The notes under the pieces: generated by a model
What the model saw: only the letters and a program-made list of their open reading frames with translations
What the model was told of the DNA's origin: nothing
The model's database searches: none
Program-made: the position numbers and the translations under genes
In this document: positions 17,065 through 40,337 of the stretch, piece after piece
Layout of the letters: each line of letters begins with the position of its first letter
How positions within the stretch are numbered: the stretch's first letter is position 1
NCBI GenBank assembly: GCA_965219265.1
Contig: OZ244730.1
Span: 2,833,834-2,897,833 of the forward strand
Length of the DNA: 64,000 bases
Reading direction: 5' to 3'
Source of the DNA: Arenicellales bacterium
GTDB lineage: Bacteria > Pseudomonadota > Gammaproteobacteria > Arenicellales > JAJDZL01

Positions 17065-18420
<1,356 letters not shown>

Positions 18421-21517: not shown

Positions 21518-21546
21518 ACGGCTTCTCATTTTTCAAACAGGTAAGA

Positions 21547-23205
21547 ATGATCAATACCTCGCCCAACTCTCCGTATTATGGGGGAAGTCCCGGACAGAAT
21601 GTAGACGATATTGTTGAGCAGATGAATGAAAGCGACCTCCGTACTATTCTTGGAGAAGACGGCATATCAATTATCGCAGCAATTTCTGAGCCCAAGAACA
21701 AATTGGAAAGGATGCACCGGGTGGCTACAAATTTGCTGCGAAATTATGCCAACAACCTTCTAGTTCGTAGTGATATTCGAGAGATATTTTTAAACTACAT
21801 GTCAAGTGGAAAGCGTGTTGAGCTCGTACAAAGGTTAAATTTATCGAATATCGTCGCGCTAGCTAGCATTGATCCGATAAATGACGCTGTAACACGTCAA
21901 GCATACTTAGGATACTTCGGGATTGATGTTCAAGGAGCTGCTCCTTTCTTAAAGTCTCCAGACAAAACGGAAAGTTCGCCGAATTATGGATTATTCCCAT
22001 ATCAACGACGCACAATGAGACAAGTATGCACCGCAATTGGTGGAGGTCATGGCAGGGTTGTACTGCACATGCCTACAGGTTCGGGAAAGACACGAACGGC
22101 AATGCACATTGTTAGTCAAATTTTGTTGAATTCAGAACCATCTATAGTGGTTTGGTTAGCCGCAAGTGCAGAGTTGCTTGAGCAAGCGGCCGATGCGTTT
22201 CAGAATGCTTGGCCACATCTCGGAAATCGTGAAGTCCAAGTGTTGCGATTTTGGGGTGATCATACACCGGAACTGTCTGGTTTTTCAGATGGCATTGTGA
22301 TTGCGGGGCTTCAAAAAATGTGCGCACTAATGAAACGCGACCGACTTGGTTTACTTCGACTAGGGAAGTTGACTAGACTTGTCGTAGTCGATGAAGCTCA
22401 TCAAGCCATAGCACCTACTTACAAGGAAGTAATAACTACCTTGGCAGAGACAGGCATAAACAATGCACTCCTAGGTTTAACTGCAACACCGGGTCGAACA
22501 TGGTCAGATATAGAAATTGATGCACAACTGTCTGATTTTTTTGAAAATCGGAAAATTCCACTTCAAATTGAGGAAGATGTCAATCCCATTTCCTTTTTAG
22601 TAAATGAAGGATACTTAGCCAAGCCAACATTTCGTCGCCTAGAAGTGGAAACACCATTTAATTTCGATCAACACTCCATTCAAGTGTCAATAAACAGCGA
22701 CTACAATCCAGAAATTTTAGAAACTCTCTCAGAGGACTATAGTAGGAATGTAGTCATTTTGGATGAAATACGACGATTGGTTGACAAAGGGCACAAGCGA
22801 ATAATTTTTTTCGCATCCTCTGTGCGGCATGCCGAACTCATAGACGGGGCGTTGAATGCTTTGGATATCGATAGTCGAATTGTAACTGCTAATACCGGGT
22901 TGACGGAACGAAAGCGAATCATCACATTGTTCAGGGCAGAGAATTCGAAGCCGATGGTCTTAAGCAATTTTGGTGTATTAACGACAGGGTTTGACGCACC
23001 TAACACAAGTGCAGCCGTAATTGCCCGTCCAACAAAATCCCTGGTGTTGTTCAGTCAAATGGTTGGCCGAGCGATACGAGGGCCGAAAGCAGGTGGTAAC
23101 GAAAATTGCACAATATCTACTGTAGTTGACATAAACTTAACCGGCTTCGGAGATGTAGCTGAGGCATTCACTAATTGGGAGGATGTTTGGCATGAACCAA
23201 GTTGA
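21547..23205 (+). CDS. SF2 (DEAH) helicase, ResIII + Helicase_C type; first gene of the island; candidate PT-dependent restriction component
   Basis: Motif I HMPTGSGKTRTA, II VVVDEAHQA, III LGLTATPGR, V GFDAPNTSAAVIARPTKS, VI QMVGRAIRG. The N-terminal ~170 aa are unassigned. Confidence 0.85.
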   Translation: MINTSPNSPYYGGSPGQNVDDIVEQMNESDLRTILGEDGISIIAAISEPKNKLERMHRVATNLLRNYANNLLVRSDIREIFLNYMSSGKRVELVQRLNLSNIVALASIDPINDAVTRQAYLGYFGIDVQGAAPFLKSPDKTESSPNYGLFPYQRRTMRQVCTAIGGGHGRVVLHMPTGSGKTRTAMHIVSQILLNSEPSIVVWLAASAELLEQAADAFQNAWPHLGNREVQVLRFWGDHTPELSGFSDGIVIAGLQKMCALMKRDRLGLLRLGKLTRLVVVDEAHQAIAPTYKEVITTLAETGINNALLGLTATPGRTWSDIEIDAQLSDFFENRKIPLQIEEDVNPISFLVNEGYLAKPTFRRLEVETPFNFDQHSIQVSINSDYNPEILETLSEDYSRNVVILDEIRRLVDKGHKRIIFFASSVRHAELIDGALNALDIDSRIVTANTGLTERKRIITLFRAENSKPMVLSNFGVLTTGFDAPNTSAAVIARPTKSLVLFSQMVGRAIRGPKAGGNENCTISTVVDINLTGFGDVAEAFTNWEDVWHEPS

Positions 23206-25042
23206 AAATTACGAGCAGGGAGATTTATTTGACGCCCAAATTATTCCCCTAAAATTAGCCATTAAAGCGATGCGTGATTCTGGATATAAGAATACTGCGT
23301 ACGCACTCGCGGAGTTAATTGATAATTCGGTACAAGCAGCAGCCGATTGTATTGAAGTTATATGTATCGAAAAACGAGAAATCACAAGAATCCGCGAGGT
23401 TCGAAGACTCTGGAGTATTGGTGTACTTGATAACGGATCAGGCATGAATGAGCATACATTAAGAAAAGCGCTTCAATTCGGCAACGGAACCAGACTTGAT
23501 GATCGAACTGGAATTGGTCGTTTTGGTATGGGGCTTCCGAACTCATCTATTTCCCAAGCAGCACGAGTAGAAGTTTGGAGTTGGCAGAACGGCCCGGACA
23601 ATGCAATTTGGTCGTATATAGATCTCGAAGATATAGAAACTCAGAACATGAAGGAAGTGCCTAAACCTCAACATTCTCCAGTCCCCGATGATTGGCGAGA
23701 AATATCTGATTCTATTGAGCAACATGGAACACTAGTCTTTTGGTCAAAACTTGACGTCTCTAGGCTAACTTGGAAAAAAGCAGATCGGGCATTGCTCCGT
23801 ACAGAAGAGATTGTCGGACGAGTTTACAGAAAGTTCATTAAGGATGACAGTATCACAATTCGATTGTGTGCGATTGAGCAAGGTCAGAAATCTGCACATA
23901 TTGATTACAAAGCCAAATTGAATGACCCGCTATATCTCACTCCTTTGGAGTCACTACCTTCACCTTTCGATAAGAAGGCCATGTTTGAATCCGTGTTTGA
24001 TGAGGATCATTTGATCGAACATAGTGGAAAGAAGCATAAGGTAAAAGTTCGCTATTCTGTGGCTTCAGGAGACACAATTACCGAATCTAATCAAAGCGAT
24101 AGAGGACAAACAAAATATGGAAGACATGCAGCGAAAAATATCGGAGTTTCAGTGGTTCGAGCACATCGTGAAATTATGCTCGACTACGGGTGGTGTATTG
24201 GTTACGATCCGAGAGAACGTTGGTGGGGTGCTGAGGTTAAATTTGATCCGGCACTAGACGAGATTTTTGGTGTACCAAACAACAAGCAAGGCGCAACACA
24301 CTTTGCGGAACTAGCCACCACGGATTGGAAAGAACTCGCGGAAGAAGGCGAGGCATTTAGAGATGTGGTTAATCGCTTGAAGGAGGAAGGGGATCCTCGA
24401 GGTTGGTTGCTCGAACTAAGCGATAGCATTAAGCGGAATCTTCAGCAGTTACGTGAACATATAAGGGGGCAGAGTAAAGGAGTACGGTCTAGTAATAAAA
24501 AGCGCCATAACCAAGCCGACGAAGCTACCGAGACTGTTAATAAAGCGTGGAAAGAGCGATCAAAAACTGTTCCGCTTGGTGAATCCGAACAATCGCCGAC
24601 ACAAGATGACCTCAACGACATCCGTACCGACCTCACCCAGAACAAAGATTACAGTGAAGACTTTGCTGAAGAACTTGTTTCTCTGATTAAAGATGCGGAT
24701 TTGAGCGTAGTATTTCTTGAGGCAGATTTTCCTGATTCATTTCAACTATTCAATGTTGAATTGAAAGGAAATATTACAGAGATTGTATTCAATAGGAGAC
24801 ACCCCGCATTCGATGATATTTTTGGTACGGTAACTACCGTTGACGAGGACGTGAGTGAACTGTTGAAAGAAGAGTTAATTGAACGATTGACAAGGGCGTG
24901 CAACTCTGCAAAGGTAATTTTCGCAGCTTGGGCTCGCTATGAGCGAGAAGCAGGTCTTGAGCGTGCTAGTGCTCTTGAGAGAGTACGTTTTGATTGGGGA
25001 CAAATTGCGTCGAAATTCTTACGACCGGAATCAGATCTCTAG
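23183..25042 (+). CDS. GHKL (Bergerat-fold, HATPase_c-like) ATPase; candidate PT-dependent restriction component
   Basis: N-box ELIDNSVQA, G1 LDNGSGM, G2 GRFGMGLPNSS. The remaining ~400 aa are unassigned and end in an acidic helical tail. Overlaps the helicase gene by 23 nt, or 14 nt if the start is ATG 23192. Confidence 0.8.
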   Translation: MFGMNQVENYEQGDLFDAQIIPLKLAIKAMRDSGYKNTAYALAELIDNSVQAAADCIEVICIEKREITRIREVRRLWSIGVLDNGSGMNEHTLRKALQFGNGTRLDDRTGIGRFGMGLPNSSISQAARVEVWSWQNGPDNAIWSYIDLEDIETQNMKEVPKPQHSPVPDDWREISDSIEQHGTLVFWSKLDVSRLTWKKADRALLRTEEIVGRVYRKFIKDDSITIRLCAIEQGQKSAHIDYKAKLNDPLYLTPLESLPSPFDKKAMFESVFDEDHLIEHSGKKHKVKVRYSVASGDTITESNQSDRGQTKYGRHAAKNIGVSVVRAHREIMLDYGWCIGYDPRERWWGAEVKFDPALDEIFGVPNNKQGATHFAELATTDWKELAEEGEAFRDVVNRLKEEGDPRGWLLELSDSIKRNLQQLREHIRGQSKGVRSSNKKRHNQADEATETVNKAWKERSKTVPLGESEQSPTQDDLNDIRTDLTQNKDYSEDFAEELVSLIKDADLSVVFLEADFPDSFQLFNVELKGNITEIVFNRRHPAFDDIFGTVTTVDEDVSELLKEELIERLTRACNSAKVIFAAWARYEREAGLERASALERVRFDWGQIASKFLRPESDL

Positions 25043-25067
25043 CCATAGTTCTGATTAGTCAAAGTCA

Positions 25068-25982
25068 ATGATAGCTGACGGCGAACGTTTAAAATCTTTT
25101 CTGGAAAAAGCAAGAATTAAGGTTGTCCTATGCGCCCCTTTCATTAAGGAGAAGGTATTACAGACCATTCTTGAGGTTGTATCAGAATCAGTACAAGTCC
25201 AGATTGTCACGAGATGGAGAGCAAGAGAAGTAGCCGCGGGAATTAGTGATTTAGAAATATTCCACATAGCGAAGAAACGACCTAACACAAAGTTAGCACT
25301 ATTAGACGATTTACATGCCAAGCTCTATCTGGCAGACGAACAATGTCTCGTAGGTTCTGCCAATCTGACCGGTAGCGCCCTCGGATGGTCGAAACGTAGC
25401 AATATTGAACTTCTTATACATGCAAAACCGACAGATATTTATGTTGCTTTCCTTCTAGAACAGTTGAAAACAGCAGTACCGGCAACTATTGAAATACTGT
25501 CCGAAATAGAAGCGGCATCAACCGTTTTGAAATCAACGGTTCTTGATGAGGGACAAGACATGACAGGTGATATTGGTTTCCGTAAATTAGCTTGGTTACC
25601 GCGTTGTGCAGCACCGGATAAACTTTGGGAAATTTATAATGATCCGTTAACAACAGTAGTTGTCGAAAATACCAAGAAAGATGGGTGCTCCGATTTAAGG
25701 GATTTACAAATACACCACGGGCTTTCCAAAATTAAGTTTGAAGTCGCCGTACAAAATTCTCTCCTATTGATGCCAGCGTTTAATCAAATAATTGATGAGG
25801 TGCCCAAAGGTATAAAGGATAGTCGAGGCAAAGCACTTATCGCTAGATTTCGTCCAAATTTTGAGGAACAGAATTTGCAAAAACAGTGGTACATTGTTCG
25901 AGCATGGATTGGATACTTTTTTGTAGATAAATTTGAAGTAGCACCAGAATCGTTTATTACCCGCCTAAAGTCAAAACAGTAG
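25068..25982 (+). CDS. PLD-superfamily (single HKD) nuclease-like protein; candidate PT-dependent restriction component
   Basis: One HKD motif, HAKLYLADEQCLVGSANLTGSAL, in the N-terminal half, as in Nuc/NgoFVII/BfiI-type nucleases. C-terminal ~170 aa unassigned. Lies 25 nt after the GHKL gene. Confidence 0.75.
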   Translation: MIADGERLKSFLEKARIKVVLCAPFIKEKVLQTILEVVSESVQVQIVTRWRAREVAAGISDLEIFHIAKKRPNTKLALLDDLHAKLYLADEQCLVGSANLTGSALGWSKRSNIELLIHAKPTDIYVAFLLEQLKTAVPATIEILSEIEAASTVLKSTVLDEGQDMTGDIGFRKLAWLPRCAAPDKLWEIYNDPLTTVVVENTKKDGCSDLRDLQIHHGLSKIKFEVAVQNSLLLMPAFNQIIDEVPKGIKDSRGKALIARFRPNFEEQNLQKQWYIVRAWIGYFFVDKFEVAPESFITRLKSKQ

Positions 25983-26242
25983 AAAGTAAGTCTGTTGAGA
26001 ACGCCACTTATGTTATTCCGCGAATTCGAGGACACTAGTCTTTTGGACGTCATGAAAAGCAAAAATGATGGATATGCGTGATTAGAAATCTCTTGATATT
26101 ACTGGTTAGCTTAATGGTGTGAATTCACTAATTAGAATTTTCTGCTACTCAATACACATCATATTTATATAATAATGAATATCAAAATCGGGGACCGGCA
26201 ATGTATAAACGTCATAATATGACGTATTTATTCATTGCAGTC

Positions 26243-26304
26243 TTGACTTGAAGAGTGCATAAGAAAATAATGAACAAAACGAATTTAAAAAATTCGTTTT
26301 GTTC
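26243..26304 (+). promoter_or_regulatory. Candidate sigma70 promoter abutting a 33-bp palindrome (operator candidate) upstream of sspA
   Basis: TTGACT (26243-26248), 17-nt spacer, AATAAT (26266-26271). Immediately followed by gaacaaaacgaattt-aaa-aaattcgttttgttc (26272-26304), with perfect 15-bp arms. Confidence 0.35.
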
Positions 26305-26457
26305 AAATTCTCATCGGCAGTTCACAATTACCTTCCAGAAGAGGCAGCCACAAGAATTCTATATACATCTGCTCAAAATTATCAGGAAATTAGGAGAACT
26401 TCTACATACGATCAAACGTGTTCGTGTATCAACATATTACGACAAAGAGCGGTTGTA

Positions 26458-27618
26458 TTGAAAGAGATATACCTTGATTACAACGGTTCAACGCCAATAG
26501 ATCCTAGAGTCGCGGAAGTCATGGTGCCAGTTCTTGTTAAAGGCGTCGGAAATGCATCGTCAATGCATCGAATGGGGCAGCGTCAAGCGGCCGCAATTGA
26601 TGAGGCTCGTGAATATGTTGCCGCTTTGGTAGGCGGTCGTCCTTCAAATGTGGTGTTTACGGCGGGTGCGACCGAATCCAATAATTTGGCGCTGATTGGA
26701 ATTTTAAACAACGGGCCAAAATATAAGACAAAAATTCTTGTTTCTGCAGTTGAGCATGTTTCAGTACGGCAAACCGCGTGTTGGATTGGTGAGCAAAAGT
26801 TGGCAGAGATCGAATTTGTTCCTGTTACGAACGGAGGTTTTGTTGATCTTGATGCTTTAGAGGCTCTCGTTGACATTAATACTTTTTTAGTATCCGTAAT
26901 GGCTGCGAACAGCGAAACAGGTGTACTGAACCCCATAGAAAAAATCGCTGAGTTAGCGCATGCGAGCAATGCTCTGTTCCATTGTGATGCGACGCAGTTT
27001 GTGGGTCGATTGCCATTTGATCTAGAAAAGACTGGTGCCGATTTCGTGTCGGTAAGCGGACACAAAATTTGCGGCCCCAGTGGTGTAGGCGCACTTATCG
27101 GTACTCGACAGAGTATGCGAGTGTTGCAACCAATCATTCATGGCGGTGGTCACGAACAAGGACTACGTTCAGGGTCGTTGAATACATCTGGCATCGTTGG
27201 ATTGGGCGCTGCCGCCCAAATTGCAGCAGACGTGCGGGTTTCGGAATCTGAAAACATTGCGAAACTCCGCGACTATCTAACATCCGAGTTAAAGTCACGT
27301 ATTTCCGGAGTCTACGAGAACGGCGATGTTGCAAAAAGACTGCCGAATACTGTCAATGTCCGCTTTGAATCCGCCAACGCAGAAGCGGTATTGGTTAACA
27401 TGGACCCTGTAGCGATATCGACAGGAAGTGCTTGCAGTTCTGGTTCTGTTGAACCATCTAGAGTTTTGTTAGCCATGGGTATAAGCCGCGAAGCGGCCTT
27501 TGAATCCGTGCGATTCAGTTTAGGGCGCTTTACAACACGCGAAGAAATTGATCTTGCCATACAACAAACCACTTCAGCTGTCGGCTATGTTCGGTCTATG
27601 ACTCGAGAGGCGATTTGA
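26458..27618 (+). CDS. sspA: Cysteine desulfurase, class V aminotransferase (SspA/DndA/IscS-like)
   Basis: IYLDYNGSTPIDPRV N-terminus, SVSGHKICGPSGVGAL PLP-lysine motif, SACSSGS active-site Cys loop. A TTG at 26458 gives the canonical N-terminus. The ORF is open from ATG 26299, but that 53-aa extension is low-complexity. Confidence 0.85.
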   Translation: MKEIYLDYNGSTPIDPRVAEVMVPVLVKGVGNASSMHRMGQRQAAAIDEAREYVAALVGGRPSNVVFTAGATESNNLALIGILNNGPKYKTKILVSAVEHVSVRQTACWIGEQKLAEIEFVPVTNGGFVDLDALEALVDINTFLVSVMAANSETGVLNPIEKIAELAHASNALFHCDATQFVGRLPFDLEKTGADFVSVSGHKICGPSGVGALIGTRQSMRVLQPIIHGGGHEQGLRSGSLNTSGIVGLGAAAQIAADVRVSESENIAKLRDYLTSELKSRISGVYENGDVAKRLPNTVNVRFESANAEAVLVNMDPVAISTGSACSSGSVEPSRVLLAMGISREAAFESVRFSLGRFTTREEIDLAIQQTTSAVGYVRSMTREAI

Positions 27619-28592
27619 TGAGACTTGTTCAGGCGGCCGCTCCGGTGTTTGCTCGGCATGAAACATTCCATCCCAGATACGGGTGGTTTCGGAAAGCATA
27701 TTCATGCACAACCGCTGATCCAACAATATTCAGTCGAGACGATGCACCAGTGCGAATTGGAGTTGGCAAAAATATGGTTAGATCAATCCGCTTCTGGGGG
27801 CTAGCAGCAAAACTTATCGAGGAAAGCACTCAAACATATTGTCGCCGAACTTCCGAATTGATTACCACCGACATGGGTGAAGCAATGTTCGGCACTTTTG
27901 GATGGGATCAGTATATGGAAGATCCGGGAACCATGTGGTTGCTACATTGGCTATTGCTTGCTCCTAGGTCCCGGTTACCTGTTTGGTGGTTGGTATTCAA
28001 TGAATTTAACGCAATCGAATTTACTGACCATGACCTTGAATCTGTAGTGACAATGCAACTCGAAATGATTTCGGAGTGGAGAAAACCTTATACGTCATCA
28101 ATTAAAAAGGATGTGAGTACTTTGCTACGTTCTTATGCATCAACAGTACGGATTAAAAATATTGGTATTGATGACCTTCTGGATTGCCCTCTTCGCGAAT
28201 TGAAATTAATTCGTTATTCTGACGAGAGCAAAAAGTATCGGTTTACGTTTGGGATCAAACCAACACTGCCGCCAGAGATTTTAGTTTACGCAGCATTAGA
28301 TTTCATCGTGCGTGCTGATGCAAACGTAAAAACCGTAACACTAAGCCGACTTGCTCATGAATCTGGCGCTCCTGGCAAGATTTTCAAGCTGTCCGAGAGT
28401 GAGATGGTCGCTATACTTGAACCAATCGTAAATCGGTTCAGTTCACTTAATCTCATTTCTACCGCTGGGGCCACACAACTAACGTGTTCTGATGAACCAA
28501 GTAAAATCGCAATTGAAGTGCTAAAAAATTACTATTGTTCTTCAAATTACATTAGTAGTGATAGACTGGTTGCCGACGACTTTTACCACTGA
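27618..28592 (+). CDS. sspB: DUF4007-family protein (SspB, PT-system nickase component)
   Basis: N-terminal FARHETFHPRYGWFRKAY matches the DUF4007 hallmark as I recall it. The ATG shares 1 nt with the sspA stop (tgATG). Confidence 0.7.
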   Translation: MRLVQAAAPVFARHETFHPRYGWFRKAYSCTTADPTIFSRDDAPVRIGVGKNMVRSIRFWGLAAKLIEESTQTYCRRTSELITTDMGEAMFGTFGWDQYMEDPGTMWLLHWLLLAPRSRLPVWWLVFNEFNAIEFTDHDLESVVTMQLEMISEWRKPYTSSIKKDVSTLLRSYASTVRIKNIGIDDLLDCPLRELKLIRYSDESKKYRFTFGIKPTLPPEILVYAALDFIVRADANVKTVTLSRLAHESGAPGKIFKLSESEMVAILEPIVNRFSSLNLISTAGATQLTCSDEPSKIAIEVLKNYYCSSNYISSDRLVADDFYH

Positions 28593-28605
28593 TGAAAGTA
28601 AACTG

Positions 28606-31600
28606 ATGGCAACTCTAGCGAATTACGTATCAATTATCAGTCGCTTTGCGCAGTCTGTGAACCTTGATCGTGATTGTGACCAAGCAAGTTCGCTTAGTGG
28701 GTACATAGTTACAGACCGTACGCTCAGTGTCGTAGGACGGGTGGCTGAAACCGCGGCCATAGGGAAATCGGGGGGCGCATGGTCACTAACAGGCCCCTAT
28801 GGTTCCGGAAAGTCATCGCTTGCCATATTGCTTGATGCTATGTTCGGCCCATCGTCAAAAACCCGTGACAAAGCATTGAAACTGCTTGATGAAGCATCAC
28901 CGTCGGTTAGAAAGTTGATTCAAGAGTCACACTATCGGTATCGGACAAACACTAGAGGTTTTCATCGTGGTTTGGTAACCGCTTGTCGAGAACCTCTATG
29001 TTTGACGCTATTACGTGCATTGAACATAGCCGTCATCCGTAGTTACGGTAAGATTCCTCCTATTAGCAAATTCCAAGCTGCAAAATTGTTGCGGCAGGCA
29101 TTGAAAGATGCAGAGAATGACGATCCCACTACAGCGCCTTCACCAACTGCTGTAATTGAAATCGCTCGCTGTTTAGCAAAGGATGCACCATTGTTGTTAG
29201 TAATCGACGAATTTGGCAAAAATCTTGAAGCAATACGAGACGATAACAATACCGACCCATATCTACTACAACAGCTTGCTGAGGCAGGCCAAGGTTCAGG
29301 ACTGCCAATATTTATACTTACGCTTCAACATCAGTCTTTCGAAGATTATTTTGTTGGAACCAACGATTCACAACGACGAGAATGGAGTAAAGTTCAAGGC
29401 CGATTCGAAGACATTGCTTATGTTGAATCCACTGCGCAATCGCGAAAATTAATCGGATCAGTATTCGATATTGGAAACTCCGAATTGAAAGCTCGAATTG
29501 CTCGATGGGCAAATGACCGATATCGGGAATTGCAAACACTCGGTGAGAACGAACTTGCAGACCCGGATACAATTGCATCTTGCTACCCACTGCATCCGCT
29601 GACTGCGTTGGTTTTGCCGGAACTCTGCAATCGGTTTGGACAGCATGAACGCACGATGTTTTCTTTTCTAACGAGTGCCGACCCCGCAAGCGCTGTTGCA
29701 TTTATTACAAACACACCTCTTCCAAGAGGCAGGAACCTTCCATCCATCGGACTTGAGGCAATATACGATTTTTTTGTTTCAAATGGTACGCTAGCAAACA
29801 TATCTAATTGTCAATCGAGCCGATGGATAGAGATAGCTATCCGCCTTCGAGATGTATACGCCCTTTCTAGGGAACAAATTGAACTGGCAAAATCTATTGC
29901 TGTACTCAATTTAATATCCACATCTGGAACAATTCGGGCGTCACGCAAGATACTCGCTCTTACTAATAACGATGTAAGAAACAATCTAAAAAATCTTGAA
30001 TCTGCCAGCATTGTCACCTACAGGGACTATGTAGATGAATATCGTGTCTGGCAAGGAACAGATGTCGACATCAACCAACTATTAGAATTTGCTTATCAAC
30101 GAGTACAAAAGCAATCACTTGTTGAAATTCTCAAAGTTATAGACAGTCCAACACCAGTAGTAGCTGCACGCCATAGTGCACAACAGGAGACTCTTCGAGT
30201 GTTCACTAGGCGCTATACCGATGGTAACGAAATCATTGAACCCTTAGACCCGTTTTCGCCGTTTGATGGAGAGGTACTACTAGTAGTTGGAACCAAAGTA
30301 CCACGCTTGAAGCAGTGGAATGATTCTCATAAACCAGTGGTGGCTGTCGTTCCAGAAACGATTGACGTTATTGATCGCGTCGCCCGAGAGACTGTAGCAA
30401 TTCATGCTGTGTTGGATGAACCTGTCGTAACAAACGATTGGGTTGCACAATGTGAATTAAGGGAACGACTAGCACATAAACAATCCGTGCTTGAAAAAGT
30501 GTTCCATACCACATTTGGTGCGAACACAACTAAATGGACTCTGTTGGACTCCAAAGACGGAATCGTACTGCCTATTGGGCGAGGAAGTGCGGCGTTGTCG
30601 ACTGCTGCTGACAAAGCGTATCCATCAACGCCGATGATTCGCAACGAAATGGTAAACCGCACTACGCTCAGCACCCAAGGGGCGAAAGCACGACGCATGG
30701 TGCTCCAAGCAATGATCGAAAATGGTTCCAACTCAGATCTTGGGTTTGCAGGTTACGGTCCTGAAGTAGCAATTTATAGCGCAGTCTTGAAACAAACCGG
30801 TATTCATGGACGTGACCGCCGGAATGATTTCATGGTTTTTCGAAAACCTACTGAGAAAAACCTGTTTCCGGTTTGGGATGCTATTGAAGATGAATTTAGG
30901 CGTGCAAGATTCAGTCGTGTAAACGTAAGTAATATATTTGCAACGCTACTTGCACCTCCGATTGGCATGAAGGCAGGTGTTGTACCTATATTTGTGACCG
31001 CAGCATTGCTTGCTTTCCGCAATGAAGTAGCAATTTACGAGCATGGAACATTTAAACCGCTACTGACTGCAGACCTTTCAGAACGGATGGTTAAGAATCC
31101 TAGCCATTTCGATATCAAGCACTTTGCTAATAACACTGGTGCACGGCGGCAAGTGATCGATGCGCTTGTCGAATGTTTTAATCTAAAGCCAAGCTTTCGG
31201 AAACACAGAGTTGCAAATGTCCTTACGGTCGTTGGCTACTTGGTTACTACAATTCGTAAACTGGACAACTATACCATTCAGACATGTAATCTTTGTCCCG
31301 ATACGATCAAATTAAGAGACACTATATTAAGTGCTGTCGAACCTGATAAACTGCTGTTTGAAAGTCTTCCCGATGCGATTGGTCTTCAACAGATACCTGC
31401 CAGCACAAAAATTTATTTAAGTACTCGAAAATATGCAAAAAGAGTTAAGTCTGCACTTGAAGAACTCGTAGGTTGCTATGATCAACTTCTAACGGAACTA
31501 TTTGATTTTATTCTCGAAATCTGTATTGAATCGGATCGAATTTCAATTACTGGTCAGGCAGCTGCGCTAAAGAACGAAGTGCTCAATCCCCAAATTAAAA

Positions 31601-32067
31601 CTCTTGTTGGAATACTGGCTAACAATTATTTCAATAATGACGATTGGGCTAACGCCGTTGCAACCATCGTGGCTAAGAAAGCGCCGGCAGAATGGACGGA
31701 TGAAGACTTGCTTGTTTTTAGGAGTGAATTTTCGCAACAAGCTAATACCTTTCGACGTTTAGTCGCTCTTCATGCAGAACACCGAACTCATGGCGACGGC
31801 CCGTTCAATTCACTTCGAGTAGCAATTACTAAATCAGATGGTAGCGAATTCGTTGACTTGGTTGGCATTGATGAGAATTTTCGCTATGAGGCAACCAAAT
31901 TGCTCAATAGCAGTCTTGAAAAGCTAACGAAAACCACAGGGTATTCAGTGCGTCGAGCCCATAGTAATTTGTTGGCCTTGCTTTGTGAACAACTAATGTT
32001 AGAATCAGGCGATGATTTAGGCAAAAATCTGGTGGAATTTAAAAATAAGGAAGCTAAAAATGGCTAA
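28606..32067 (+). CDS. sspC: Large P-loop ATPase (SspC-like)
   Basis: Walker A LTGPYGSGKSSLA, Walker B LLLVIDEFGKNLE. The ~850 C-terminal residues have no motif I recognise. Alternative GTG start at 28558. Confidence 0.65.
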   Translation: MATLANYVSIISRFAQSVNLDRDCDQASSLSGYIVTDRTLSVVGRVAETAAIGKSGGAWSLTGPYGSGKSSLAILLDAMFGPSSKTRDKALKLLDEASPSVRKLIQESHYRYRTNTRGFHRGLVTACREPLCLTLLRALNIAVIRSYGKIPPISKFQAAKLLRQALKDAENDDPTTAPSPTAVIEIARCLAKDAPLLLVIDEFGKNLEAIRDDNNTDPYLLQQLAEAGQGSGLPIFILTLQHQSFEDYFVGTNDSQRREWSKVQGRFEDIAYVESTAQSRKLIGSVFDIGNSELKARIARWANDRYRELQTLGENELADPDTIASCYPLHPLTALVLPELCNRFGQHERTMFSFLTSADPASAVAFITNTPLPRGRNLPSIGLEAIYDFFVSNGTLANISNCQSSRWIEIAIRLRDVYALSREQIELAKSIAVLNLISTSGTIRASRKILALTNNDVRNNLKNLESASIVTYRDYVDEYRVWQGTDVDINQLLEFAYQRVQKQSLVEILKVIDSPTPVVAARHSAQQETLRVFTRRYTDGNEIIEPLDPFSPFDGEVLLVVGTKVPRLKQWNDSHKPVVAVVPETIDVIDRVARETVAIHAVLDEPVVTNDWVAQCELRERLAHKQSVLEKVFHTTFGANTTKWTLLDSKDGIVLPIGRGSAALSTAADKAYPSTPMIRNEMVNRTTLSTQGAKARRMVLQAMIENGSNSDLGFAGYGPEVAIYSAVLKQTGIHGRDRRNDFMVFRKPTEKNLFPVWDAIEDEFRRARFSRVNVSNIFATLLAPPIGMKAGVVPIFVTAALLAFRNEVAIYEHGTFKPLLTADLSERMVKNPSHFDIKHFANNTGARRQVIDALVECFNLKPSFRKHRVANVLTVVGYLVTTIRKLDNYTIQTCNLCPDTIKLRDTILSAVEPDKLLFESLPDAIGLQQIPASTKIYLSTRKYAKRVKSALEELVGCYDQLLTELFDFILEICIESDRISITGQAAALKNEVLNPQIKTLVGILANNYFNNDDWANAVATIVAKKAPAEWTDEDLLVFRSEFSQQANTFRRLVALHAEHRTHGDGPFNSLRVAITKSDGSEFVDLVGIDENFRYEATKLLNSSLEKLTKTTGYSVRRAHSNLLALLCEQLMLESGDDLGKNLVEFKNKEAKNG

Positions 32068-32908
32068 TGCACCCCGACATATTTGTGGAATATCAGGTGG
32101 CAAAGACTCAAGCGCACTCGCTGTTTATTTGAGGGGAAAAGTACCCGAAATGGAATATTTTTTTTGCGACACCGGAGCGGAATTGCCTGAAACTTACGAG
32201 TACCTCACTCGCCTTGAGGTAATTCTCGGCAAACAAATTACTCGGTTGAATTCACAACGCGGTTTCGACCACTGGTTCGAAATATTTCGCGGTACGCTCC
32301 CATCACCTCAAATGCGATGGTGCACTACAAACATGAAAATTAAACCCATTGAAGAGTGGGTTGGTGATGATCCAGTTTTCTCTTATGTTGGCATTCGTGC
32401 CGATGAAGCGAATCGCAAGGGATATATTTCAACCAAGCCTAATATTCAGACTAAATTTCCATTTATTGAAGATGAAATAAACCGCGATGGTGTTATGAAA
32501 ATTCTTTCTGATGCGGGCATTGGCCTGCCAAGATATTATGAATGGAGGACACGTTCGGGTTGTTATTTTTGCTTTTATCAACGCAAAGCAGAGTGGATTG
32601 GGCTTTCTGAGCGGCACCCTGAATTATTTGAACGCGCAATCGCAATTGAACAAAAAGTTTTACGTGATGCTGGAATTGATGGAGATGCAGATTTTACGAA
32701 TCAAGCAATGCGAGGTCGCCAATACACCTGGTCAGGTGGTGAAACCTTAGTAGAGCTCCTGTCTCGCAGGGACGAAATACTAGAGCGACACGAAGCGGCA
32801 GTATCAAATGCAAAAACAAATAGAAAAAATATTCCACTAATTGAGGCGCTAGCTGATGCCCTTGATGATGAGGACGATACAATACCATGTATGGTTTGTG
32901 CGCTTTGA
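32060..32908 (+). CDS. sspD: PAPS-reductase/PP-loop ATP pyrophosphatase family protein (SspD, DndC-like)
   Basis: PP-loop ISGGKDSSALAVYL, Cys motifs RSGCYFCFY and IPCMVCAL. 8-nt overlap with sspC (atggctaa). Confidence 0.8.
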   Translation: MANAPRHICGISGGKDSSALAVYLRGKVPEMEYFFCDTGAELPETYEYLTRLEVILGKQITRLNSQRGFDHWFEIFRGTLPSPQMRWCTTNMKIKPIEEWVGDDPVFSYVGIRADEANRKGYISTKPNIQTKFPFIEDEINRDGVMKILSDAGIGLPRYYEWRTRSGCYFCFYQRKAEWIGLSERHPELFERAIAIEQKVLRDAGIDGDADFTNQAMRGRQYTWSGGETLVELLSRRDEILERHEAAVSNAKTNRKNIPLIEALADALDDEDDTIPCMVCAL

Positions 32909-33177
32909 AGAAAATGGCCATATAAATTGTTCACTGACTATATATATTTCCGATTTGCACAACAGTCTGCAAGGGACAGTAGAAAACATCGTACATACTT
33001 GGTCAAATTTTAGGTTGACTGTATGTGAAGCATGAAGCCTTTTGTTCGAAACAGAACGAATATGACGGCTTTTCCAATTCTGATCATAACTCAATTTTGT
33101 ACATCTTTGACTGCCACTTTTTACGTCTAAGTTACTCCTGGAGTTATTGATTCTAATCCTAGCGATTTAATTGCACA

Positions 33178-35562
33178 ATGAATGACATTGAAACAAGATA
33201 CAAAACCGAAGCCACGACTTTCGGTCGCATGATGATTGAAACCCAAGGAGTAGGGTTTAAGGTTCCCGAATACCAACGAACCTATGATTGGGCAGAAGAA
33301 CATCTGAATAGACTAATTGATGATTGCTTGGATGGCTTGTACCAACTCTCCCAATCTAAAAATTATGTCCGAATTCCATACACATTCTTGGGAACAATTA
33401 TCTTAGTTAAAGAGGAGAACAAGAAAGAACCTTATTTCAATGGCAGGTCACTTGCCCTTGTTGATGGTCAACAGCGCGTGACTTCCCTAGTACTACTCTG
33501 TTGCGTGTTATATGAAAAATTGAACATTTTGAAAAATACGACCATTTACGGCGGCTTGCAAAATACTCCCGACTATATTAAAGAATGGCTTGAAGACGAA
33601 GTTGAGCATTTTTCAAGTCATCTTTTTAAATGCGCAATTGGAACACTGGAAAAGATGCACTCAGTGTTAACATACTTCCCTCGAATTATTCGCTCAGGTG
33701 ATTCAAGAGGCTACGGAACACATGCTGAATATCGCTCGAGTATCAGCATATTTCTAATGTTGTTTAATGATTACGTTAGAGATCAAAATTTTAATTTATT
33801 CTCACTTGGTCGTTCAAAAATAGGAAAGAGCAATTCAGCAGAATTCGAGAGCTTGCTGGACTCCTACGAAAAAATTAGAAAAAAACTAAATGTTCTAGAT
33901 GACGCTAATTCACAAGATTCTGAAGTTAATCTCGTAAACAAGAACAAATTCAAAGAAAAACAAACAAAAAACCTATTTCAAAAATTACACCTATTGGAAA
34001 CAAATGACAAATCTAATAAAGCGCAAACAGCCTTAAGCACGCTTTCGAAATGTAGCGAAACAGAGGGATTGGTAAGAACGATTCTGTTTTCTGCTTACAT
34101 GCTGGATTATGTCGTGTTAACGACAGTTCAAACTGATGATGAAGAATCTGCATTTGATATTTTCGATTCACTTAACACTACCGGAATTCCACTAACAGCT
34201 CTTGAGACATTAAAACCGCTTGTCGTAGATTACGAAGAAAATGTCGCAAAAATTGAATTTATTCGTTCGTATTCTTACTTGAGTTTCGATAGGATAAAAC
34301 GAAATTTGGATGATGTCGGAGCATTTAGGCTGAACAATGATAGGCGACAGAAAGCAACTAGAGATTTAATTATCTCGTTCGCACTGTACATGGATGGGGC
34401 TAAGCTAGCGCGTAATTTGAGAGATCAGCGGAAATACTTGCGGGATCATTTTCACAAATTCAATGAGGTTGAATCTAAAAGAAAGTATATAGAATCAATT
34501 GCCGATTTAGCTGAATTTCGCTATGAATTTTGGATGCGAGAAGGCAAACGTGGAAGCAATTTGAAGCTTGAAACGGTTAGTTCGCATGAGGATACGCAGT
34601 TGTGCCAATTGTGTATCACACTTATGAAAGATATGGGAATGACTTTGACTGTTCCTATTATTGCACGATATTGGCGGTGTATTATCAAACAAAACGGCCC
34701 AGATAATTCTAACCATGCTGAATTTTTAGCGGCTGTAAAAGCGATAACCGCTTACGTGGTATTACGAAGAACATATACAGGCGGTTCCGAGAGAATTGAT
34801 ACTGAACTTCGGAAGATTATGTCTAGCAATCCATATCTTGATCTTCCCCCTTTGCATTGCGGAGAAGAACTATCCGATCAAGTCTGGTCAGTTAAGCAAC
34901 TACAAGAAGTGCTTCGGCACAAACTTAGAAATTACATTTGTAGACAACCTGAACTAGAACTAGATTCCAGTATTTGGTTAGACCGTGCCAAAGAAATCAC
35001 TCTATACGAGAATAGTCAAAGTTTATGCCGCTTTTTATTGTTGGCAGCAGCCCATATGTCAATCCCAAAAAACGGAACATTAACTCGAAAAGGAGTAAGG
35101 GAAGATGACGACAAAAGTTACCTCACACTTACCGCTTGGAATGACTCCAAATTCAAGACAATTGAACATATTGCACCAAAGGAATCTACTGATGAATGGG
35201 ACGATAAGATATACAGCAAACAAAAGCAACACACGATAGGTAATCTAACTTTGCTTCCGTTGCCAGAAAATTCAAGTGTGAGTAACAAAAATTGGGAAAA
35301 GAAAAAACTGTTTTACAAAATCTGTTCTGCGGCAACAAATGAAGAACTTGACGAAATATTGGAGACTGCCAAACTACAGCAAATTTCAATAGGTGAAAAA
35401 ACAATCCAGTTCCTCAAAGAACCTAGTCGAAAGAGATTGTCAATGCTTGTTCCTATAGCTAACGCTGATCAATGGAATGCAGATTGGATTGAAAAAAGAT
35501 CGCTCAATATCCTTCAACTCGCTTGGGATATCATCGCTTCTTGGTTAGAAATAGAAAACTGA
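33178..35562 (+). CDS. sspE: DUF262 (N-terminal) + DUF1524 His-Me/HNH-like (C-terminal) nuclease, SspE / GmrSD-like
   Basis: DUF262 motifs FKVPEYQRTYDW and LVDGQQRVTSL. C-terminal IEHIAPKE...HTIGNLTLLP...NSSVSNKNWEKK. A 269-nt gap after sspD suggests its own promoter. Confidence 0.75.
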   Translation: MNDIETRYKTEATTFGRMMIETQGVGFKVPEYQRTYDWAEEHLNRLIDDCLDGLYQLSQSKNYVRIPYTFLGTIILVKEENKKEPYFNGRSLALVDGQQRVTSLVLLCCVLYEKLNILKNTTIYGGLQNTPDYIKEWLEDEVEHFSSHLFKCAIGTLEKMHSVLTYFPRIIRSGDSRGYGTHAEYRSSISIFLMLFNDYVRDQNFNLFSLGRSKIGKSNSAEFESLLDSYEKIRKKLNVLDDANSQDSEVNLVNKNKFKEKQTKNLFQKLHLLETNDKSNKAQTALSTLSKCSETEGLVRTILFSAYMLDYVVLTTVQTDDEESAFDIFDSLNTTGIPLTALETLKPLVVDYEENVAKIEFIRSYSYLSFDRIKRNLDDVGAFRLNNDRRQKATRDLIISFALYMDGAKLARNLRDQRKYLRDHFHKFNEVESKRKYIESIADLAEFRYEFWMREGKRGSNLKLETVSSHEDTQLCQLCITLMKDMGMTLTVPIIARYWRCIIKQNGPDNSNHAEFLAAVKAITAYVVLRRTYTGGSERIDTELRKIMSSNPYLDLPPLHCGEELSDQVWSVKQLQEVLRHKLRNYICRQPELELDSSIWLDRAKEITLYENSQSLCRFLLLAAAHMSIPKNGTLTRKGVREDDDKSYLTLTAWNDSKFKTIEHIAPKESTDEWDDKIYSKQKQHTIGNLTLLPLPENSSVSNKNWEKKKLFYKICSAATNEELDEILETAKLQQISIGEKTIQFLKEPSRKRLSMLVPIANADQWNADWIEKRSLNILQLAWDIIASWLEIEN

Positions 35563-35625
35563 AAGAAGTTTAGTGTCTAGCTGTCAAACAAGTGCCTCAC
35601 GGGATGAGCAAATTCTTCACCACCG

Positions 35626-36006
35626 CTACCTTGTTCTGATTGTCACTATACAGACTACTATTGGTCCCCACAACAAGCATCCGAGAGCGTAATCCTTTTC
35701 GATCAAATGTGGATAAATGTCTAAAGCCTCTGCAAGGTAGAGAATCTCTTTTTTATCAATCATGTGCAATGCCTGTAGCCATGTATTCTGGTACCCAGAG
35801 ACGCATTTTGAAATTAAGCGAGGGCAATTCAGTAGAGGGTCGATTTTTGCGTTGCCTTTTGTCATATAGGCTCGACATGCGTCTACTATAGTTTCTGTGC
35901 CATCAAGCTTTTCAGTTAGAAATCCAAGACGTTTGAAAATTGCGCCGTTGCTAAACTCTACGGCATAACTGATTAGTCGTCCCTGAATAATCAATAAATA
36001 GTACAT
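35626..36006 (-). pseudogene. Remnant of an AbiEi antitoxin C-terminus fused to an AbiEii (nucleotidyltransferase toxin) N-terminus, truncated at both ends
   Basis: FKRLGFLTEKL resembles the AbiEi C-terminal RLGYLLE block. MIDKKEILYLAEALDIYPHLIEKDYALGCLLWG resembles the AbiEii N-terminus. Only ~80 aa and ~45 aa survive of proteins that are normally ~200-300 aa each. Confidence 0.5.
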
Positions 36007-36094
36007 AACATGCTGTTTATATTAATATAATATTCCATAATCACTGTTCTGATATTGCAAGTAATGTTATAATTCATAGTTAATTCCTTGCAAT

Positions 36095-37546
36095 TTCGGA
36101 GTGAAAAATGGTCCCCGAAAAACCTTCAAATCAAACCCAGTTCGACCTGTTCTGACTGCAACTGGACAACATCATCAACCGCAATCACGAACTCTACCGC
36201 CTGGCCGAGATGATCGACTGGTCGGTGTTCGACGAAAGCTTCGGCCCCCTGTATTGCCCGAATAAGGGGTGCCCCGGCAAACCCACTCGCCTGATGGTGG
36301 GCCTGCAAATGCTGAAGCATTTGTACGGCATGTCTGACGAGGAAGTGGTCGACAGATGGGTGGAGAATCCTTACTGGCAGAAGTTTTGCGGCGAGGTCTA
36401 TTTCCAGCATCAACCTCCGATTGACCCGAGCAGTATGACCCGATATCGAAAGCGCATTGGCGAAAGTGGCTGTGAGTTGATTCTGCAGCTCACAGTGACT
36501 GTTGGAGTGACCAGTAAAGCGGTGAAACCCTCGGATCTTAAAAGAGTGACGGTGGATACCACGGTGCAGGAGAAGGCGGTGAGTTATCCGACCGACAGCA
36601 GGTTATTGAACCGCTCGCGTGAGCGGCTGGTTCGTTTATGCCGAAAACATGCCGTGGTGCTTCGCCAGAGTTATGCTCGAAAAGGACCGAAAGCCTTACT
36701 GAAAGCGAACAGATATGCCCATGCCCGGCAATATCGTCGAATGCGTCGCGAAGTCAAAACACTGCGAACCTATTTGGGACGTGTGGTTCGCGATATCGAA
36801 CGCAAGATTGCGTCAGACCCCACACGACAAGGGCAGTTTGCTGAGGAACTGTGGTTAGCGCAACGGTTGTTGAAGCAGCGACAACACGACCGGAACAAAC
36901 TCTACAGCCTGCATGCTCCGGAAGTGGAATGCCTTGCCAAGGGCAAAGCTCATAAGCAGTATGAGTTTGGAGTGAAGGTGAGTATCGCGGCGACCAACAA
37001 GAGTAACTTCGTGGTCGGCGCGATGGCTTTATCAGGTAACCCTTATGATGGACATACGTTGAGTGGAGCACTGCAGCAGGTACGTCGGATGAGCGGGCAG
37101 CGGATAGATGAGGTTTTTGTGGATCGTGGTTACCGGGGGCATGGCGAGAGTCTAAGCGAAGTGTATATTTCCGGTCAGAAGCGAGGCATCACCACGCAAC
37201 GCTTAAAGCGAAGCCTGAAACGTCGACAGGCGATTGAACCGATTATTGGTCACCTGAAGAGCGATGGATTGCTGGGTCGCAATTATCTCAAAGGCACACT
37301 CGGTGACCAGATGAACGTGCTGCTGTGCTGTGCAGGACATAATTTACGCTTGATATTGAAGCGCCTGAGGTTTTTTTGTCTCGATTTTTGGGGACGGTTT
37401 TGGGCGCCGATACGCTGTTGGGAGGGGGCAAATCGTCTCATCACGGAAATCAATTCCGGTGCACGATGGTTACAGAGTCGATCAACAAATTCGTTCGCGA
37501 CTCAATTGCTTCCAACCACGGGATAAATGGATTTTTCAGGGTCGAC
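36095..37546 (+). mobile_element. IS5-family insertion sequence (boundaries approximate)
   Basis: DDE transposase ORF. Visibly more GC-rich than the flanks. Imperfect terminal inverted repeat candidates with core TGAAAAAT (36102-36109) and ATTTTTCA (37531-37538), extended by tcg on each outer side. Confidence 0.7.
36108..37526 (+). pseudogene. IS5-family DDE transposase with an in-frame TGA at codon 16
   Basis: ATG 36108 encodes MVPEKPSNQTQFDLF, then TGA (36153-36155), then LQLDNIINRNHELYRLAEMIDW in the same frame as ORF 36210-37526. Family motifs: NPYWQKFCG, VDRGYRGH, IEPIIGHLKSDGLLGRNYLKG. A shorter product from Met 36210 remains possible. Confidence 0.7.
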
Positions 37547-37561
37547 TGATTAGCTTGTCGT

Positions 37562-37693
37562 CATTCCTTTGGGGAATGGCCGACGGTGTTTGGTGACAAG
37601 AAGATGACCGCTGCGCTGTTGGATCGGTTGACGCATCACTGCGAAATTATTGAGACCGGCAATGAGAGCTGGCGCTTCAGGAATCGAAGTTGA
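37562..37693 (+). pseudogene. C-terminal fragment of an IS21-family IstB helper ATPase
   Basis: Translates [42 protein letters not shown], the conserved IstB tail. Everything upstream is missing and is replaced by the IS5 element. Confidence 0.8.
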
Positions 37694-37729
37694 TGAAAGG
37701 TAGAAAGGAGGGTGTTTTTTCGGAAATTT

Positions 37730-37761
37730 TACTGAGCCCGAGCCTCGGTTCGGGCTCAGTA
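37730..37761. repeat. Perfect 12-bp inverted repeat (hairpin) in the IS21-remnant 3' flank
   Basis: tactgagcccga-gcctcggt-tcgggctcagta. Confidence 0.6.
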
Positions 37762-37797
37762 AAGGGGGGTCAATTTTCAATGACATTTGACACCTGT

Positions 37798-38058
37798 ACG
37801 CCGCATTGTGCCAACTTGAGCTTGGTTACTTGTTTCACAATGCATTTATTGCGAGCCATTCCAAATGCGGGCAAGTACCTGGAATTTTCGATTGAAGGTG
37901 CGGACTACTATCCATGGCAGCAGAACCTGTTCCGTGAATATCCGTATCACATCTCAGACGGTCATGCTACTTTGACGGATGCGCCAGGCTGGGGAGTTGA
38001 GAATAATTGGAGTTGGCTGGCCGATTCAATCCATCAAATCAGCGCGCTCGAAAGCTGA
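37798..38058 (+). pseudogene. C-terminal fragment of an enolase-superfamily (mandelate racemase/muconate lactonizing type) enzyme
   Basis: TPHCANLSLVTCFTMHLLRAIPNAGKYLEFS...ISDGHATLTDAPGWGVE matches the C-terminal barrel end of MR/MLE proteins. The first ~300 aa are absent. Confidence 0.55.
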
Positions 38059-38207
38059 CTGAGTTGGTCAACGTTTCTATGCTTATTCCATGCAGATTCG
38101 CGGCCTGTTTCCGTTTGAATCCGTAATTACCTATAATTCAAACACAAATTGAAACATATACTGAAGTTGCCGATTGCGCAATTTCAAATTCGACCCTGCA
38201 GACCGCC

Positions 38208-38807: not shown

Positions 38808-38849
38808 ACCTCTATCTTCAGCGGCAAACGCTGTTGGAATTTCCCTGAA

Positions 38850-39491: not shown

Positions 39492-39577
39492 ACACTGGCT
39501 TGTGGCTGCCCCAAATGCAGTCAATATTCGTCGGTCGTATAATTGAAACTACTTCCTGCCCCCAATAATTCATATTC

Positions 39578-40336: not shown

Positions 40337-40337
40337 A

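Follow-up and report, generated by a model that had tools for sequence, protein, structure and literature searches.

In this study, we analysed a 64-kb window from an Arenicellales bacterium (64,000 nt; positions 2,833,834 to 2,897,833 of contig OZ244730.1, assembly GCA_965219265.1), in which a gap of 16.7 kb separates the end of hisC at 21517 from the start of hisB at 38208 within the histidine (his) gene cluster. We are fairly confident that this hisC-hisB junction is a seam of the hotspot kind, flanked by core genes and lacking an integrase, at which hisB would be served by a promoter of its own and cargo would be exchanged through the flanks, and that the cargo now present, an Ssp defence locus accompanied by a trio of helicase, GHKL ATPase and HKD nuclease genes, would be guided by a DNA mark. 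The cargo would have been exchanged and eroded through homologous recombination across the conserved his flanks, illegitimate joining and deletions associated with insertion sequences (IS), without placement by a site-specific integrase. The present content would then comprise the Ssp locus and the wreckage of earlier occupants, namely an AbiE remnant, an IS5 pseudogene, the end of an IS21 element and a truncated MR_MLE gene, with the IS fragments accounting for local deletions. Such a seam could be tolerated if murA-hisGDC is read from upstream and hisBHAFIE from the resident promoter region in the 149-nt spacer ahead of hisB. SspABCD, for its part, would mark the host DNA with phosphorothioate, and SspE, and probably the trio, would attack DNA according to that mark.

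From open reading frames (ORFs) and Pfam matches we could read one co-directional run of murA, hisG, hisD, hisC, nine non-his ORFs, hisB-H-A-F-I-E and tatABC, in which murA, hisG, hisD and hisC upstream of the interval and hisB, hisH, hisA, hisF, hisI and hisE downstream of it are full length by Pfam. The two borders named in the original prediction, where hisC ends and hisB resumes, are thereby confirmed. The core genes framing the interval are the following.

17113-18420, + strand: murA (Pfam).
20429-21517, + strand: hisC, histidinol-phosphate aminotransferase, the left core flank (Pfam Aminotran_1_2, 2.3e-42).
38208-41848, + strand: hisB-hisH-hisA-hisF-hisI-hisE, the right core flank, all intact (Pfam; 92-98% identical to the congeners).
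38208-38807, + strand: hisB (Pfam).
41531-41848, + strand: hisE (Pfam).

The nine ORFs, all on the his strand, occupy nearly all of 21547-37526 and therefore leave no room for an integrase gene. No integrase remnant was found in the interval, whose only mobile-element material is IS fragments at its right end. Across the 64-kb window no tRNA or tmRNA gene was detected, and the longest direct repeat common to both junctions measures 8 nt, against a mean of 8.3 nt after shuffling. The earlier description of the interval as free of integrase, tRNA and flanking repeat, with all intact genes on the his strand and with defence genes accompanied by IS debris and pieces of genes, agrees with the ORF inventory, the tRNA scan, the chance-level repeat and the Pfam, PADLOC and NCBIfam matches. 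Its impression of a more A+T-rich island with a GC-rich IS5 element was also borne out by computation, with a G+C content of 0.423 for 21518-35562 compared to 0.486 in the left and 0.477 in the right flank, and of 0.517 for the IS5 portion, whose transposase reaches 0.59 at third codon positions (GC3). GC3 lies at 0.33-0.40 in island genes versus 0.44-0.53 in his genes, and the tetranucleotide distance to the flanks at 19-29 in the island versus 9-14 elsewhere. By all three measures, the interval DNA is foreign in composition. At the far left of the window, positions 1-4000, with two large + strand ORFs at 60-2270 and 2289-4190, form a tetranucleotide outlier as well (distance 20.5 versus 9-14 for the backbone), at a normal G+C content of 0.50.

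What carries the hotspot reading is the state of the same junction in related genomes. The comparison set comprised 12 genomes and was evaluated without a formal hotspot statistic. A HisC search returned four clusters at about 90% identity and a second tier at about 60%, the nearest taxon-named match being an Acidiferrobacterales metagenome-assembled genome at 60%; HisC of the window is about 90% identical to that of its congeners (P0001-P0004). Look-ups for proteins identical to HisB, HisC and the helicase of the window returned no match, and a genome-collection scan with HisB yielded none above 74% identity. The flank DNA of the congeners L081-L086 is about 94-96% identical to the window, while the more distant L087-L090 and L105 display the same mlaD-to-tatC synteny with his DNA of about 68-70% identity. 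Ten different arrangements of the junction occur among the 12 genomes, those of the relatives being as follows.

L082, L083 and L084: hisC, TauE, an intact 368-residue MR_MLE gene, hisB; interval 3.3 kb.
L086: hisC, about 1 kb, a frameshifted MR_MLE gene, hisB.
L081: hisC, a helicase gene cut down to its first 760 nt, hipBA in opposite orientation, a fragment resembling AbiEi, a truncated MR_MLE remnant, hisB.
L085: hisC, a DruA/transposase-like gene, AbiE, fragments, a 5' portion of MR_MLE, another copy of the hisC 3' end, a helicase fragment, hipBA.
L087 and L089: empty junction, with 197 and 171 nt between hisC and hisB.
L090 (11124-20391) and L105 (11442-20713): a cbb3 oxidase cluster of about 10 kb, in which fixI and fixS run against the his direction.
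L088: other accessory genes over 8 kb or more, with hisB absent within 8 kb of hisC.

Since nearly every related genome has different cargo at this position, we do not read the interval as one insertion event in a compact operon; the junction behaves as a long-lived, variable hotspot, in which the same core flanks enclose differing accessory content and neither an integrase nor a self-mobile element is found in the interval. The original idea of an unusual insertion into an essential operon is not upheld by a junction that varies in nearly every relative. Empty hisC-hisB junctions, which the original prediction had suggested looking for, do exist in L087 and L089, but the closest relatives carry TauE and MR_MLE instead, and an arrangement in which all relatives share the same genes with backbone-like composition, likewise looked for, was not observed. 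For annotation this implies that an empty site should be sought beyond the nearest relatives, since these carry older occupants. The presence of cbb3 genes in L090 and L105 indicates that the seam takes housekeeping clusters besides defence genes. The oxidase cluster is complete and of cbb3 type, with fixS, fixI, ccoNO(Q)P, fixG, fixH and a dsbD-like gene. Among genomes further off, hisC lies directly upstream of hisB on the same strand in 32, with a gap of 3-109 nt, and in a survey of 80 hisB loci, for which upstream flanks of up to 10 kb (shorter for some) were available, 45 had no hisC in the flank examined.

The exact ends of the replaced DNA could be located by alignment with the congeners, and involve these features.

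21518-21557, + strand: left junction, comprising a 29-nt spacer and the ribosome-binding site, ATG and first codons of the helicase gene (blastn end points, junction alignment).
37586-37792, + strand: IS21-family remnant with the final 35 codons of IstB and about 100 nt of the right terminus (Pfam IstB_IS21, 2.4e-11).
37793-38058, + strand: 3' remnant (266 nt) of the resident MR_MLE (enolase-superfamily) gene (Pfam MR_MLE_C).
38059-38207, + strand: resident spacer upstream of hisB, 149 nt, with TATAAT at 38132-38137 (alignment with congeners).

On the left, homology with the TauE-type congeners ends 40 nt beyond the hisC stop, at 21557 (window CAGGTAAGAATGATCAA, L082 CAGGGAAGAATGGTCAA); the TauE/MR_MLE-type congeners retain the ribosome-binding site, the ATG and three codons of the helicase gene, matching there at 15 of 17 nt, while homology with L081 extends to 22307. 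On the right, all congeners rejoin at 37793, inside MR_MLE, where the IS21 terminus (...TTTGACA, ending at 37792) directly abuts the truncated resident gene. The IstB match covers positions 202-236 of the 238-position profile, and the MR_MLE remnant aligns to the end of the intact 368-residue gene in L082 (13958-14223). These alignments place the right edge of the replaced DNA at 37792/37793 and the DNA special to the window genome at 21558-37792. The last approximately 415 nt (37793-38207) are consequently resident DNA common to every congener and not part of the island. The originally proposed extent up to 38207 thus stands as the extra DNA relative to the empty relatives (21518 to about 38207), but not as the extent of the island itself.

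The 760-nt helicase fragment common to L081 and the window is 95-97% identical, like the core flanks. As it has diverged to the same degree as these flanks, the insertion is not recent, and we date the island to the divergence of the strains; by this measure the Ssp island would have been in the lineage for about as long as these strains have diverged, its interior having since been lost in L081. The simple TauE/MR_MLE state, because it keeps the helicase start, may be derived from an island-bearing ancestor rather than ancestral. Possible signs of recombination were found on the hisC side. The last approximately 500 nt of hisC (21000-21517) are the most divergent part of the left flank, with about 10% divergence among congeners versus 3-6% upstream, and L081 and L082 are 96.8% identical in mid-hisC and 90.0% in the last 520 nt, where L081 is nearest to L086. 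This divergence and the shift in nearest neighbour suggest recombination tracts ending beside the hotspot. A related observation concerns L085, whose hisC-hisB interval contains two distinct alleles one behind the other (10001-21083): the first breaks off in MR_MLE, whose 5' portion is joined without homology (…GCGTGACA to GAATAAAAG…) to a repeat of the final approximately 220 nt of hisC, followed by cargo of the L081 type. The stacking resembles the outcome of homology-facilitated illegitimate recombination or of an unequal exchange. At the MR_MLE breakpoint the left-hand DNA differs between genomes, being the IS21 terminus in the window and an AbiEi-like fragment in L081.

With respect to transcription, the TATAAT box upstream of hisB is accompanied by a poor -35 element (TTTCCG) at a spacing of 18 nt, as originally described. 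It was not brought in as a new promoter, however, since the 149-nt spacer that contains it is conserved in the congeners irrespective of the cargo, and the insertion therefore did not create it. A -10-like box is located 53-70 nt before hisB in four genomes (the window, the empty L087 and L089, and L090), with a good -35 element in L090. The opposite-strand genes in L081, L090 and L105 further indicate that a transcript from hisC to hisB is not the general rule in the lineage. These observations point to hisBHAFIE as a separate unit, probably with its own, older promoter, which would make the junction a seam and not the middle of an operon. Dependence of hisBHAFIE on 16 kb of read-through, one of the two options first considered, appears unlikely given the opposite-strand cargo of relatives and the 45 hisB loci without hisC in the flank examined, whereas some read-through from hisC to hisB in the window genome is possible. 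The insertion site, initially regarded as potentially costly, probably carries a small cost, given the hotspot and the evidence for a promoter of hisB's own. At the other end of the cluster, murA and hisG are about 59 nt apart (18421-18478; congeners' gene calls), without leader, attenuator or Rfam match in between, and an Rfam scan of the 64-kb window returned zero matches, so that RNA elements, a his leader or a T-box among them, were not found. With hisG this close behind murA and no leader or attenuator, hisGDC is therefore placed within a longer bolA-grx-murA-his unit and not in a classically attenuated operon.

The remaining features of the interval are the trio, the ssp genes and the debris that follows them.

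21547-23205, + strand: SF2 helicase (ResIII/DEAD and Helicase_C), first gene of the trio (Pfam).
23183-25042, + strand: MORC-like GHKL (Bergerat-fold) ATPase (Pfam HATPase_c_3, 6e-21).
25068-25982, + strand: single-HKD nuclease of the phospholipase D (PLD) family (Pfam PLDc_2, 2e-08).
25983-26457, no strand: AT-rich spacer of 475 nt between the PLD gene and sspA (sequence, promoter/hairpin scan).
26458-27618, + strand: sspA, cysteine desulfurase (PADLOC SspA, 5.3e-131; Pfam Aminotran_5).
27615-28592, + strand: sspB (DUF4007) (PADLOC SspB, 8.6e-104; Pfam DUF4007, 3.7e-86).
28558-32067, + strand: sspC, large ATPase related to BrxC (PADLOC SspC, E = 0, 1018 bits, full length).
32060-32908, + strand: sspD, PAPS-reductase-like (PADLOC SspD, 2.5e-108; Pfam PAPS_reduct).
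33178-35562, + strand: sspE, GmrSD-like with DUF262 N-domain and DUF1524 C-domain (PADLOC SspE, 1.6e-214, residues 4-790; Pfam GmrSD_N, GmrSD_C).
35626-36006, - strand: AbiE toxin-antitoxin remnant, without a Pfam match of its own (similarity to L085).
36100-37526, + strand: IS5-family transposase pseudogene (NCBIfam transpos_IS5_1, 4e-157; Pfam DUF772, DDE_Tnp_1).

As annotated, the trio, SspABCD and SspE form one coherent defence locus of about 14 kb. SspABCD are encoded together and near full length by PADLOC and Pfam, and SspE, with both of its domains, adjoins sspBCD. The sspA ORF opens at 26299, but the PADLOC alignment begins at ORF residue 58, and the start is probably the TTG at 26458 (MKEIYLDYN...). 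SspABCD-SspE is a system that defends by sensing phosphorothioate (Xiong et al. 2020, cited from PMC8092258), and the window likewise holds its five genes intact, in canonical order and at full length against the PADLOC profiles; it differs by the trio located immediately upstream in the same orientation, and its phosphorothioate modification is a prediction from the genes. In the trio, helicase motifs I, II (DEAH), III and VI are intact, and the protein gives weak matches to the PbeA, RadD and TIGR04095 profiles and a PDB match to RadD (8.5e-20). The start of the GHKL gene overlaps the end of the helicase gene by 23 nt, its N (ELIDNSVQA), G1 (LDNGSGM) and G2 (GRFGMGL) boxes are present, and the sole match in a PDB sequence search was MORC2. 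The HKD protein contains one HxKx4D...GSxN motif, which reads HAKLYLAD...GSANLT, and weakly matches DrmC and ZacB.

Because the helicase gene starts 29 nt past hisC (not 30 nt, as first stated) without a promoter-like site, the trio is probably transcribed as the tail of the murA-hisGDC unit, while sspA-E would probably use a promoter in the spacer at 25983-26457. Of all promoter-like sites in the region, the best one (26243-26271, TTGACT-17-AATAAT) lies in this spacer and is abutted by a perfect 16-bp palindromic hairpin at 26271-26305 (TGAACAAAACGAATTT...AAATTCGTTTTGTTCA), which may be an operator or a bidirectional terminator. One could extend the arrangement of the trio to a lineage-wide cassette site, in which the his transcript would run on into the first cargo gene as its tail, an idea we hold with less confidence than the assignment of the trio as a partner of Ssp discussed below. 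Downstream of sspE follow about 540 nt of AT-rich DNA with the AbiE-like remnant, in which 35665-35976 are 70.6% identical to the AbiEii/AbiEi boundary of L085, where both genes are annotated. The IS5 ORF contains an in-frame TGA at 36153-36155 and has lost its own stop, the family homology ending at about 37365 while the ORF continues to 37526. Convincing terminal inverted repeats were not found for it, nor a second copy in the window or in any compared locus, and the element is therefore a dead fragment.

To place the trio, further loci were collected by tblastn of plasmids with the GHKL protein and by a metagenome scan that returned five loci, and 12 of them had enough flanking DNA (L091-L095, L099-L104 and L107). 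They stem from Pannonibacter, Roseobacter, Aminobacter, Mesorhizobium, Agrobacterium, Trichormus, Planktothrix, Geminocystis, Hymenobacter, Treponema and two metagenome contigs (L094 and L095, of which the latter matches the Pannonibacter locus in layout and identities), and thus span Alphaproteobacteria, Cyanobacteria, Bacteroidota and Spirochaetota. All 12 carry DUF4007/SspB, SspC-like or PAPS-reductase/SspD-like genes within about 11 kb, usually directly adjacent, and the helicase-GHKL-HKD order of the window recurs in 11 loci from four phyla. L096, which begins inside the GHKL gene and has a weak (23%) SspB-like match only, was left out of the count. Two remote GHKL homologues (23-26% identity) have neither helicase and PLD partners nor ssp genes nearby. 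From this neighbourhood, the trio would likely serve as a second restriction arm that reads the SspABCD phosphorothioate mark to tell self from non-self, in the way SspFGH and SspE operate together. That the trio (21547-25982) constitutes a third, undescribed restriction partner of SspABCD alongside SspE we put forward tentatively, as a real possibility rather than as the probable outcome. If true, it would explain a part of the approximately 84% of sspBCD loci that have neither SspE nor SspFGH (PMC8092258), and the pairing across four phyla offers a clonable candidate for the missing restriction partner of orphan Ssp systems.

Several known systems were considered for the trio. SspFGH, the second known restriction module of Ssp, in which SspF has a Walker A motif only and SspH an FtsK/SpoIIIE-like C-terminus (Wang et al. 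2021, PMC8092258), is like the trio a three-gene module adjoining sspBCD and able to coexist with SspE. The trio of the window differs by its ResIII/DEAD and Helicase_C, HATPase_c_3 and PLDc_2 domains, by the lack of an FtsK domain and by the lack of a PADLOC Ssp match, and its identification as SspFGH was rejected on these domain differences. An Agrobacterium plasmid (L104) carries an FtsK/SpoIIIE-domain gene just downstream of the helicase/GHKL pair, which indicates two distinct modules. PbeABCD (Rakesh et al. 2024, PMC10853773) combines an HKD nuclease fused to an SF2 helicase (PbeA, TIGR04095), a CxC ABC ATPase (PbeC) and a DndE cognate (PbeD), and HKD and SF2-helicase restriction components adjoin dnd genes there. 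This assignment was rejected, too, since the PbeA match covers the helicase part only (8.1e-23), the HKD protein is separate and no ABC ATPase or DndE was found in 21518-38207. DISARM, Mza, Mokosh and Azaca gave domain-level matches only, far under the family cut-offs.

Prokaryotic MORC/paraMORC GHKL ATPases, according to Iyer, Abhiman and Aravind (2008, PMC2292703), are encoded together with SF2 helicases and nucleases in operons predicted to serve restriction-modification. The window has intact Bergerat motifs in a gene that overlaps the helicase gene and is followed by the HKD gene, and by its domains the trio would belong to this MORC/paraMORC-helicase-nuclease theme of predicted restriction systems. 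As in those operons and in PbeABCD, GHKL ATPase, SF2 helicase and HKD nuclease activities would be placed beside a DNA-modification module in one predicted operon, but in the window the modification partner is SspABCD and not a methylase or DndCDE. An association between the trio and ssp genes does not appear in the searched portions of PMC2292703 and PMC10853773, and a literature search within the library available to us found it described nowhere.

For the interval as a whole, three other explanations were weighed. A single mobile element, either an island that lost its integrase or a composite transposon bounded by IS elements, could have inserted once and decayed, as the IS5 and IS21 fragments at the right end, the exact abutment of the IS21 terminus (…GACA) on the truncated resident gene, the foreign composition and the coherent co-directional block of trio and ssp genes might suggest. 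Yet the left end has no IS and no inverted or direct repeat, there is no integrase remnant, and relatives display at least nine other arrangements with unrelated cargo, including the housekeeping cbb3 oxidase cluster. The integrase, tRNA site and attachment (att) repeats of a classical genomic island are absent, and so are the second IS copy and the target-site duplication of a composite transposon, the IS elements of the interval being single-copy and confined to the right end. Plasmid and phage collections contained no near-identical DNA to the island, so that a donor element was not found there. We therefore consider a single decayed element quite improbable. An assembly chimera, in which a defence island from elsewhere became joined to two halves of the his cluster, would fit the abrupt composition changes at both ends and the repeated-element debris at the right end. 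It is extremely improbable, as the independent assembly L081 has the same left junction with 760 nt of helicase and the same right breakpoint, the junction of the hisC 3' end with the helicase recurs in L085, and the helicase divergence (95-97% identity) matches that of the core flanks.

Somewhat less remote, though still unlikely in our view, is an expression of hisBHAFIE mainly by read-through from the murA-hisGDC promoter, with the co-orientation of the island genes kept by selection. The nine ORFs on the his strand, the helicase gene 29 nt after hisC, terminator-like sites that do not exceed chance and the poor -35 of the candidate hisB promoter speak for it. Intact hisB-E genes despite minus-strand genes in L081 (hipBA) and in L090 and L105 (fixI, fixS), the conservation of the hisB spacer independent of cargo, the 45 of 80 other genomes lacking hisC in the upstream flank examined, and the interruption of the block at 25983-26457 by the 16-bp hairpin and the 475-nt AT-rich gap all speak against it. 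The recombining-hotspot explanation that we prefer has to contend with several points of its own. The promoter scan stands at chance level (26 sites found versus 34 expected), and with its poor -35 the hisB promoter call rests on consensus matching; all nine inserted ORFs run in the his direction, and of 17 terminators found versus 16.9 expected none is convincing. The recombination signal derives from seven sequences without a formal test, and hisC is less conserved than hisD anyway. The window (37793) and L081 (14376-14378) break MR_MLE within 2 nt of the same position, a coincidence that the proposed scenario leaves unexplained, and the TauE/MR_MLE state, in which the helicase start is kept at 15 of 17 nt, may be derived, so that more than one order of events would fit. 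Finally, the coupling of the trio to Ssp is predicted from gene neighbourhood.

Split his clusters also occur elsewhere. In Pseudomonas aeruginosa, murA-hisGDC, hisBHAF and hisIE-tatABC are located apart, and the his operons of C. glutamicum are reportedly an example of non-his genes in his clusters or of his sub-clusters. As in the window, such clusters are broken at the hisC/hisB boundary in many Gammaproteobacteria, but here the sub-clusters stay neighbours and the seam between them has been repeatedly refilled with differing foreign DNA. A literature search within the same library returned nothing specific on islands inserted into his operons.

According to Oliveira et al. (2017, PMC5635113), many hotspots are free of mobile elements and owe their renewal to recombination in the core genes on either side, and newly acquired genes seldom enter operons. 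The absence of an integrase together with the signs of flank recombination is therefore suggestive of this model. Like the hotspots of Oliveira et al., the core defence hotspots described in Pseudomonas aeruginosa (Johnson et al. 2023, PMC10250203) and the defence-island hotspots of E. coli such as #37 (Hochhauser et al. 2023, PMC10121019), the hisC-hisB junction presents varied accessory or defence cargo between the same conserved gene pair, neither an integrase nor a recognizable mobile element, and a turnover that leaves gene fragments behind; recombination in its flanks, as in those hotspots, is suggested. It differs in that its flanks are two genes of one pathway that are direct neighbours in many other Proteobacteria, and in that its cargo, across the 12 genomes compared, goes beyond defence to the cbb3 oxidase cluster of sister lineages. 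The apparent oddity is thus an example of a known rule, by which accessory DNA gathers at few permissive seams and turns over there with no dedicated integrase involved. Even a conserved biosynthetic cluster can contain such a seam, the cargo of which may be defence in one strain and a respiratory oxidase in a sister lineage. Both the integrase-less, core-flanked hotspot and the Ssp defence system are of known kinds; what sets the present case apart is the location at the hisC/hisB boundary, with its very high turnover throughout the lineage, and the conserved trio associated with Ssp.

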